From positions 1 to 37,320 of the IMG/VR virus record IMGVR_UViG_2617270964_000016: DNA of 37,320 bases. One strand, 5' to 3'. This DNA is from a virus (Duplodnaviria; Heunggongvirae; Uroviricota; Caudoviricetes). Of this stretch, positions 10,289-11,091 are shown piece after piece. Positions within the stretch are counted from its first letter, which is position 1, and each line of letters opens with the position of its first letter. Below the pieces are notes generated by a model. That model searched no databases. It worked only from the letters and a program-made list of their open reading frames with translations, and was not told where the DNA came from. The translations under genes were made by a program, and so were the position numbers.

Positions 10289-11091
10289 GTATGGAGCTGA
10301 TGGTTAAAGCGATGAAAATTCGAGTGGGTAATCCATTGCGAAAACTGGTTCTGATCAAGCTGGCTGATAATGCCAGCGATCAGGGTGAGTGCTGGCCCAG
10401 CTACCAGCATATTGCTGACCAGTGCGAGATTAGCAAACGTTCTGTGATGAATCATATTGCGGCCCTTTGTGAGTCCGGGCTGGTAAAAAAAGTCACCCGG
10501 AAAGGTGAAAAAGGTAACTCAAGTAATATCTATCTCCTTCATCTGGATGGTGCAGGAGATTCACTAGGGGGTAGTGCAAATAATTCACTATCTGGTGCAG
10601 CAAATTCACTAGGTAGTGCAGGAGTTGCACCAGGGGGTAGTGCAGGAGATTCACCCAGAACCAGTCACTCTTTTGAACCAGTCAATGAACCAATAGCTGT
10701 TGGTGCATCAGTTGATGAGTCCGTGCGAGTTCGTTCAAACCGACCGGAATACTCTCCGGAGTTTGAGCAGGCATGGCTGGCATATCCCAAACGTGCTGGT
10801 GGCAATTCAAAATCTGCAGCCTTCAAAGCCTGGAAAGCCCGTTTGAATGAGGGGGTAAACCCCGAAACCATGCTGGAAGGTGTGAAACGCTACGCGGGCT
10901 GGGTATCTGCGATGGGTAACAGCGGCACACAATTTGTGAAACAGGCTGTCACGTTCTTTGGTCCGGATCGTCATTTCGAAGAATCCTGGGAAGTTCCTGC
11001 GGTATCTGCAGCCAGACGTGAGGACCCGTACTTCAAATCCAGTTACGACAACGTGGACTACAGCCAGATCCCGGCAGGATTCAGGGGGTGA
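10285..11091 (+). CDS. Phage replication initiator-like protein (N-terminal HTH domain, Gly/Ser-rich linker, conserved C-terminal domain)
   Basis: GGAGG Shine-Dalgarno then ATG 10285. N-terminal winged-HTH-like segment ...YQHIADQCEISKRSVMNHIAALCESGLVKK.... The linker is encoded by iteron-like DNA repeats. Confidence 0.5.
   Translation: MSMELMVKAMKIRVGNPLRKLVLIKLADNASDQGECWPSYQHIADQCEISKRSVMNHIAALCESGLVKKVTRKGEKGNSSNIYLLHLDGAGDSLGGSANNSLSGAANSLGSAGVAPGGSAGDSPRTSHSFEPVNEPIAVGASVDESVRVRSNRPEYSPEFEQAWLAYPKRAGGNSKSAAFKAWKARLNEGVNPETMLEGVKRYAGWVSAMGNSGTQFVKQAVTFFGPDRHFEESWEVPAVSAARREDPYFKSSYDNVDYSQIPAGFRG
10549..10656. repeat. About five tandem iteron-like direct repeats (about 21-25 bp, core TGCAGGAGATTCACT) inside the replication gene; candidate origin of replication
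   Basis: Seen directly: TGCAGGAGATTCACTAGG / TGCAAATAATTCACTATC / TGCAGCAAATTCACTAGG / TGCAGGAGTTGCACCAGG / TGCAGGAGATTCACCCAG, followed by GAACCAGTCA direct repeats. Confidence 0.45.

Follow-up and report, generated by a model that had tools for sequence, protein, structure and literature searches.

The DNA analyzed here (hereafter, the window) is a 37,320-nucleotide stretch comprising positions 1 to 37,320 of the IMG/VR virus record IMGVR_UViG_2617270964_000016, an Escherichia coli lambdoid prophage of the SfV / ST64B / mEp460 type. Its replication initiator gene carries five short repeats (iterons) in the middle of the coding sequence, followed by a conserved 30-nt DNA box. From the sequence evidence, we consider it probable that the five iterons and the box constitute a lambda-style replication origin located inside the initiator gene, although the initiator belongs to a different protein family from lambda O. 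The repeats are almost certainly, as judged from their sequence, five binding sites for the prophage's own initiator.

Tandem Repeats Finder reported an array at 10550-10654 with a period of 21/24, 4.7 copies, 69% matches and a score of 72, in agreement with a preliminary description of this DNA that had placed tandem repeats in the initiator gene. The 15-mer core given in that description, TGCAGGAGATTCACT, occurs exactly only once, and the true core is instead a palindromic site of two 5-bp arms around 5 variable nucleotides. This dyad-symmetric 15-bp sequence, GTGCA-N5-T(T/G)CAC, has invariant arms, whereas its centre reads GGAGA, AATAA, GCAAA, GGAGT and GGAGA in units 1-5; units 1, 2, 3 and 5 have the form GTGCA-N5-TTCAC, and unit 4 has the form GTGCA-N5-TGCAC. 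The pattern GTGCANNNNNTKCAC was found in the 37-kb window only at the five positions listed in Table 1 (spacing 24/21/21/24 bp), against an expectation of 0.19, and 0 of 100 shuffles reached 6 matches. The array is situated between the codons of the winged helix-turn-helix (HTH) domain (residues 1-89) and those of the C-terminal domain (residues 155-268). Folding of the array as single-stranded DNA (ssDNA) was modestly better than that of shuffles (z = -2.1), in keeping with its palindromic units.

Relatives of the initiator gene were collected as 80 loci, with one genome per species, using the peptide patterns GECWPSYQ and GTQ[FY]VKQA, not the repeats, as the seed, and the recurrence of the motif was profiled in these 80 genomic loci and in 119 viral contigs. 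Where the motif occurs, it lies at the same place in 3-8 copies, apart from one decayed single-copy variant (L086); in the spacing analysis the loci had 3-7 iterons, mostly 4-5, with one single-copy locus besides. A total of 143 of the 151 distances between neighboring iterons were 21-24 bp, the rest being multiples, and the flanking positions in relatives extend the half-site to T-R-GTGCA. When GTG[CA]A-N5-T[TG]CAC was counted in 85 loci, 217 sites were found in 12.2 kb of linker-coding DNA and 1 in the remaining 568 kb.

The motif is not tied to a codon frame or an orientation, with 172 sites in frame 1, 29 in frame 0 and 23 inverted, and the peptides it encodes differ accordingly (GAGDSL, VQEIHQ, GGESPAP). 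Examples in frame 0 are GAG GTG CAG GAG ATT CAC CAG in Aeromonas, encoding EVQEIHQ, and a site in Pseudomonas encoding GVVQEIHQG, while the Microbulbifer sequence GGTGAATCTCCTGCACC, which encodes GGESPAP, is the reverse complement of GGTGCAGGAGATTCACC in the window. Because one DNA motif gives rise to three unrelated peptides, it is not a protein-level repeat, and the comparison indicates that conservation of the iteron motif acts on the DNA, not on the protein. In the window, the iteron motif forces rare codons: CTA accounts for 3 of 3 leucine codons in the linker but for none of the 13 found elsewhere in the gene (and 3% of the leucine codons in the open reading frames (ORFs) of the window), and 7 of 8 linker alanine codons are GCA.

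The same five sites are present, unchanged, in the plaque-forming phages SfV, mEp460 and Ayreon. The preliminary description had held that repeats absent or degenerate in functional homologous phages would speak against an origin, and since the sites in these three phages are unchanged, that objection falls away. The largest protein cluster (2852 members) is 272 amino acids (aa) long, which is the length of the five-iteron form of SfV, mEp460 and Ayreon. Relatives with 1 iteron (P0042, 242 aa), 2 iterons (P0029-P0035, 250 aa) or 8 iterons (cdtI, P0001) were detected besides those with 5, and the variants with 1-2 copies may be origin-defective prophages.

The initiator matched the Pfam family HTH_36 (PF13730) over residues 17-67 with 44.2 bits (cut-off, 25 bits) and phrog_270, 'replication initiation protein', with E = 3.8e-88. 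In the AlphaFold2 model, residues 1-89 form a winged helix with a predicted local distance difference test (pLDDT) score of 77-92, comprising helices at residues 17-29, 40-47 and 51-64, followed by a wing (residues 67-85) in the form of a beta-hairpin. Foldseek with the whole model gave generic winged-helix matches at E ~0.01, including the DnaD N-terminal domain (2v79, E = 0.018), and residues 51-64 align to the third helix of the HTH in FadR/GntR-type chains, which we take to be the recognition helix. The repeats encode DGAGDSLGGSANNSLSGAANSLGSAGVAPGGSAGDSP, and residues 91-154, which cover the repeats and the following part, are predicted to be disordered (pLDDT ~30). The C-terminal domain had no Pfam family and no sequence relative in the PDB; the PHROG names 'DnaD-like helicase loader' and 'primosomal protein' were rejected as annotation labels only, which give no identity for this domain.

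The lambda O family PF04492 (Phage_rep_O) did not match the initiator at E <= 0.01, and only PHROG families labelled 'O-like' did. The parallel with lambda drawn in the preliminary description thus holds for the ori-lambda-like layout and the O-like gene context, but the protein itself falls outside the Pfam lambda-O family. DnaD_N (PF21984) scored 24.4 bits, under its cut-off of 27 bits, so the initiator was not assigned to the DnaD-like replisome organisers, and the Pfam scan of the initiator detected no plasmid Rep family (Rep_3 or RepA WH1-WH2).

The N-terminal domain is extremely conserved across relatives except in and around the recognition helix. All loci with a helix of the form x[KR]R[ST][VA]xxH (SKRSVMNH, SRRSVINH and similar) contained 3-8 copies of the window motif, with the single-iteron locus L086 as the sole exception, whereas the motif was detected zero times in every locus with a DRSTVRKH, xRSTVKxH, SKSAVRxH or SKRSVMRH helix. 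Each of these other helix classes comes with 3-6 repeats of its own, placed at identical offsets and equally spaced to those of the window type, and these too occur in shifted frames or flipped orientation: GTGAC-ACAGA-GTCAC for the SKRSVMRH class, TGTAGGCCCAGAA for DRSTVRKH, GGGGCGGCAGATAAC for ARSTVKVH, and CTGTGC-N9-GCACAG for SKSAVRxH. The same split between helix types and iteron types was observed in 100 viral contigs that were collected with a different seed, though the counts do not represent independent events because the helix and the iterons lie next to each other and are co-inherited. The window motif type was seen together with no fewer than nine unrelated types of C-terminal domain and with 18 or more types of upstream gene, several of which were also found with other motif types. 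This distribution indicates that the iteron type tracks only the winged-helix domain of the same gene and not the C-terminal domain or neighboring genes. Lambdoid O proteins show the same pattern of pairing with the iterons that they recognize (PMC8022706). What the proposed reading as origin iterons predicts at the sequence level, i.e., a motif free of frame and orientation, covariation with the helix and a spacing of 21-24 bp, was found in every case.

The 30-nt box follows the array at a fixed distance: in 44 of the 44 loci carrying the window motif, the first base of its AGA codon lies 17 nt downstream of the first base of the last iteron. The preliminary description had reported GAACCAGTCA direct repeats after the array; two exact copies are indeed present, at 10658 and 10675 and in different reading frames, but they are part of this larger conserved DNA box. 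The ten codons of the box were compared at 77 loci, with ten codons for invariant residues of the N-terminal domain as the control. Deviations in the box were synonymous in 8 cases and non-synonymous in 137, and the control codons showed the reverse (330 vs 12). The same codon was used for arginine in 74/74 cases (AGA) and for serine in 77/77 (AGT), with TCT at 71/71, GAA at 76/76, CCA at 61/65 and GTC at 69/73, and the changes that did occur were mostly amino-acid-changing (T/I, H/N, F/S/L). In these hosts, both AGA and AGT are disfavored codons.

The box also has the lowest GC content within the gene, in hosts of high and of low GC alike (0.35-0.42 vs a background of 0.5-0.65; the local GC at the box in the window is 0.43-0.47). 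In BLASTN comparisons with Vibrio and Stenotrophomonas phages it was the only part of the gene that matched. It occurs independently of the iteron class, the C-terminal type and the loader type, and in the viral contigs it was found inside this initiator gene family only.

Both recombination joints seen in close relatives abut the box, one on either side. In ST64B (L003), the sequence left of the box is ~99% identical to that of the window and the right side is much more diverged, whereas in two E. coli contigs (L084, L085) the left side is strongly diverged, with another winged-helix class and other iterons, and the right side is nearly identical. A 12-bp unit, GAACCAGTCAA(A/T), which encodes EPVK/EPVN, is present in 2 copies in the window (10675-10696), 3 copies in SfV, mEp460 and ST64B (the modal number), and 5 copies in E. 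coli Ec-U11 (L001:12001-12843). By analogy, we read the box as the likely counterpart of the unwinding tract of lambda and secondarily as a crossover point for module exchange. A broader proposal, which we make tentatively, is that the box is the universal origin core of a very large gammaproteobacterial phage initiator family, i.e., a sequence-specific unwinding or helicase-entry element common to every iteron class and helicase-recruitment type, perhaps read as ssDNA by an invariant face of the winged helix or by a conserved host protein. As the box is identical everywhere, it would also act as a crossover point at which the N-terminal domain and iterons are reshuffled against the C-terminal domain and loader.

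From the anatomy of the gene, the selection at the DNA level, the covariation with the recognition helix and the gene context, we infer that the initiator binds, that the DNA is unwound at the box, that host DnaC is used and that the site acts as an origin, along the following lines. Dimers of the N-terminal winged-helix domain would bind the five iterons, which lie about two helical turns apart, each iteron offering two half-sites of 5 bp (7 bp when extended), T-R-GTGCA / TGCAC-Y-A, whose centres are separated by 10 bp. The bound iterons would assemble into an O-some-like nucleoprotein complex acting on the adjoining low-GC box with its GAACCAGTCA repeats, which is the putative site of unwinding and helicase entry, and the C-terminal domain would recruit the helicase, presumably host DnaC-DnaB.

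Several other explanations of the repeats were considered. Slippage in a low-complexity Gly/Ser/Ala linker, with selection on the peptide or on nothing, would account for the variable copy number (1, 2, 5 or 8 of the 21-24-bp units and 2-5 of the 12-bp units) and for the predicted disorder of the region, but it is extremely improbable given that one DNA motif is used in two frames and both orientations for unrelated peptides, that its arms are invariant and its centre variable, that rare codons are forced, that five copies are strongly modal, and that the 217 linker sites stand against one site in the other 568 kb. It is very unlikely that the sites are bound by some other protein, such as a host factor or a nearby phage regulator. 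Immunity and regulatory genes upstream are linked to the initiator gene, which would suit such a regulator, but the same motif type persists with the at least 18 upstream-gene and at least nine C-terminal types noted above, in hosts from E. coli to Pseudomonas and Shewanella, and follows the N-terminal recognition helix only. The initiator may instead bind the repeats for autoregulation, as a transcriptional roadblock or for copy control, with replication starting elsewhere in the phage. The sites are inside a transcribed gene, no strongly AT-rich tract adjoins them, and plasmid initiators that bind iterons commonly autoregulate too. We nonetheless regard this explanation as unlikely, because the window has no other such repeat array, the constant 17-nt distance to a low-GC box that is conserved universally fits an origin core, the layout matches that of ori-lambda (PMC7466680), and the identity of the box across all specificity classes would be left unexplained. 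Scans of the region for other elements gave no RNA family in the initiator gene (Rfam, 9500-12000; only isrK and C4 upstream), no sigma-70-like promoter site in 9900-11700, and one terminator-like hairpin on the minus strand (10508-10493), which is at chance level.

A further explanation concerns the box itself, which may be kept mainly as a homologous-recombination joint for exchange of N- and C-terminal modules, with no direct role in initiation, so that the origin would consist of the iterons and some nearby DNA. The mosaic joints on both sides of the box (ST64B; L084 and L085) and the at least seven unrelated C-terminal domain types found behind the same box favor this, yet we consider it doubtful. 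Selection for future recombination is weak and unlikely to fix nearly all synonymous sites across Pseudomonas, Vibrio, Aeromonas and Enterobacterales, the neighboring domain, itself highly conserved as a protein, has reached saturation at its synonymous sites, and the box is both in fixed phase to the last iteron and at the GC minimum. Roles of the box in initiation and in recombination are compatible.

Some observations weigh against the origin proposed here and against an unwinding role of the box. With ~55-60% A+T, the box is far from the AT-rich tract of ori-lambda, and only a mild GC trough, not a strongly AT-rich tract, was found beside the iterons. As ssDNA, the box folded no better than shuffles (z = 0.13 and 0.51), and it gave no convincing match to a DnaA-box or IHF-like consensus when compared by eye only. 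The window gene is one 12-bp GAACCAGTCAAA unit short of the modal form. The covariation counts come from genetically linked segments of related sequences and are thus not independent. If the prophages with natural 1- and 2-iteron variants replicate, five sites are not needed.

The preliminary description had noted no helicase loader gene, and our scans likewise detected no helicase or loader, neither by Pfam and PHROG in the early-right ORFs to 14770 and nine early-left ORFs nor by a Walker-A scan of all ORFs in the window. In relatives, the gene following the initiator gene belongs to the lambda-P family (L007, E = 1.6e-66; L026), is a DnaC/IstB-like AAA+ gene (L004, L006, L025, L013, L067) or, in the distant relative L050, encodes a DnaB-family helicase, and these downstream genes identify the initiator as O-like. 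Behind the linker, relatives have at least seven C-terminal domain types that are unrelated to one another. Of the 25 loci outside E. coli and Salmonella that carry the C-terminal type of the window, at least 23 have a DnaC/IstB-like gene next to it on the downstream side, whereas in E. coli and Salmonella the place of the loader gene is taken by PerC or Dam, and in the window a PerC-like gene sits where relatives have the helicase loader. Since a phage DnaC-like gene accompanies this C-terminal domain in these loci, use of host DnaC-DnaB is the simplest explanation of the missing loader and is likely for this phage.

In Pseudomonas loci with C-terminal cluster 1 (e.g., L009:3893-4669), the initiator gene is always followed by a gene for a ~265-aa protein without a Pfam match, which is a candidate for an undescribed helicase-recruitment partner.

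The arrangement resembles several known systems to different degrees. In iteron plasmids (RK2 TrfA, F RepE, pPS10 RepA), a winged-helix initiator binds direct iterons about two helical turns apart, and the unwinding element has short direct repeats that some Rep proteins contact as ssDNA. The window differs in having no Rep_3/RepA-type Pfam match, a candidate origin embedded in coding sequence and no DnaA box by eye. The initiators of SPP1 (G38P/oriL) and the replisome organisers of the lactococcal phages TP901-1 and Tuc2009 bind direct repeats inside their own genes, but these are Gram-positive systems with different protein families, and the DnaD_N match of the window protein is sub-threshold.

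The arrangement also resembles ori-lambda, where the middle of the O gene holds iterons that are imperfect inverted repeats, with a low-GC tract beside them (PMC7466680, PMC8022706). Lambda and its Stx variants 933W and P27 share with the proposed origin of the window a position in mid initiator gene with 4-6 iterons of ~20 bp, each an imperfect inverted repeat, a lower-GC tract downstream of the iterons, and an iteron number that varies and alters the protein length; lambda and Stx phages have 4 and 6 iterons, respectively, as natural variation (PMC7466680). In lambda O, DNA binding resides in the N-terminal domain and recruitment of the loader in the C-terminal one (PMC7466680, PMC8022706), a division that the window protein would share. 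Unlike lambda O, the window protein is an HTH_36 winged helix and not Phage_rep_O, the tract is a sequence-conserved 30-nt box that is only mildly A+T-rich, and no P gene follows the initiator gene. The origins of P22 gene 18 and phage L gene 18 also have an initiator-specific repeat set inside the initiator gene, and their replication region is exchangeable only as a whole (PMC8022706). They differ from the window in repeat sequences and protein families and in having a DnaB-type helicase gene 12, an arrangement seen here only in the distant L050. The element in the window would thus be of the ori-lambda type in function and layout, and the universal DNA box may be a new feature.

The replication module of the window is probably the same as that of the 'Eru6' type of Stx phages, and the window appears to be a non-Stx relative of these phages. 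Its initiator gene is 97.2% identical (H23) to that of the Eru6 reference Stx2a_WGPS2 (AP012537). In that reference a Rha/Ash-type gene precedes the HTH_36 gene after cI; in the window an Ash-domain ORF lies upstream of the initiator gene. The Eru6 classification is based on gene content only and describes no origin, and the paper states that knowledge of the replication proteins of Eru phages is lacking altogether (PMC8951638). We found no mapped origin for this module in the accessible literature, although an earlier prediction may exist, and a full-text search for the motif sequences returned unrelated primers only.

The module is widespread in E. coli, yet replication of Eru-type Stx phages is undescribed (PMC8951638), and a candidate origin makes the question testable. 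The predicted half-sites, the recognition-helix code and the core box together give a defined candidate origin, and the natural series of helix/iteron pairs could be used for the study of winged-helix specificity. The proposed origin architecture also offers a mechanistic reason for a mosaic joint in the middle of a gene.

Among 5426 complete E. coli genomes, 2715 gave a match to the initiator gene, and 897 of them contain it at full length. Its identity is 97-99% with the genes for the 'replication protein' in SfV, mEp460, Ayreon, cdtI, Stx2c phages and Stx2a_WGPS2, and 87.5% with sb42 of Salmonella phage ST64B. The module as a whole is present in SfV, ST64B, cdtI, Stx2c and Eru6-type Stx2a phages, with relatives in Pseudomonas, Aeromonas, Vibrio and Shewanella. 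The features of the replication region are listed in Table 1.

Table 1 Features of the replication region in the window, in order of position.
Feature	Coordinates	Strand	Basis
cI-like S24 repressor	7666-8340	minus	Pfam and PHROG scans
cII-like gene	8663-9226		Pfam and PHROG scans
Ash-domain ORF	9223-10059		Pfam and PHROG scans
Small phrog_1153 gene	10052-10288		Pfam and PHROG scans
Initiator gene, 268 aa (N-terminal winged helix, disordered linker, C-terminal helical domain)	10285-11091	+	Pfam HTH_36, phrog_270
Winged-helix domain codons (aa 1-89)	10285-10551	+	AlphaFold2, Foldseek
Predicted recognition-helix codons (aa 51-64), KRSVMNHIAALCES	10435-10476	+	AlphaFold2 helix 51-64
Iteron 1, GTGCAGGAGATTCAC	10550-10564		Pattern search
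Iteron 2, GTGCAAATAATTCAC	10574-10588		Pattern search
Iteron 3, GTGCAGCAAATTCAC	10595-10609		Pattern search
Iteron 4, GTGCAGGAGTTGCAC, perfect palindromic arms, pattern matched on both strands	10616-10630		
Iteron 5, GTGCAGGAGATTCAC	10640-10654		Pattern search
Box CCC AGA ACC AGT CAC TCT TTT GAA CCA GTC; candidate unwinding/helicase-entry element and recombination joint	10654-10683		
GAACCAGTCA copy 1, read R-T-S-H, from codon position 2	10658-10667	+	
GAACCAGTCA copy 2, read E-P-V, from codon position 1	10675-10684	+	
Degenerate third copy, GAACCAATAG	10687-10696	+	Sequence reading, alignment
C-terminal domain codons (aa 155-268); presumed helicase/loader recruitment	10747-11088	+	AlphaFold2 helical, pLDDT 55-74 for aa 155-212
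PerC-like gene (yfdN type)	11088-11582	+	Pfam PerC E = 7.8e-09; PHROG 'transcriptional activator'
After the PerC-like gene: Dam methylase, LexA-DNA-binding-domain protein, RusA, KilA-N protein, DUF968 protein			Pfam and PHROG scans

The initiator gene is also borne by records of 33-45 kb deposited as plasmids, and a plasmid replicon was considered for them and rejected. These records are whole phage genomes and therefore give no evidence of a plasmid replicon; for example, the 44.6-kb L206 (NZ_CP148393.1), deposited as an E. coli plasmid, represents an entire circular phage genome that includes an integrase and shares the replication module and all five iterons with the window. Some E. coli fusion proteins (P0047, P0053-P0055, P0086) have the N-terminal ~70-80% of the initiator joined to RusA (Pfam HTH_36 and RusA), and they look like deletion products of decayed prophages. 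Between the Dam and RusA genes of the window, a 108-aa protein (12232-12558, + strand) has a LexA DNA-binding domain alone, without the S24 peptidase part.

Upstream of the initiator gene, Rfam identified an isrK Hfq-binding RNA (9583-9659, 61 bits) and a C4 antisense RNA (9684-9771, 80.7 bits) on the + strand, plus a weak c4 target element. The RNAs at 9570-9771 look like a P1/P7-type antisense-RNA immunity cassette upstream of an ash-like gene. All three are inside the long ORF at 9223-10059, of which the Ash domain forms the C-terminal part, and the real ash start is probably downstream of the isrK and C4 RNAs.

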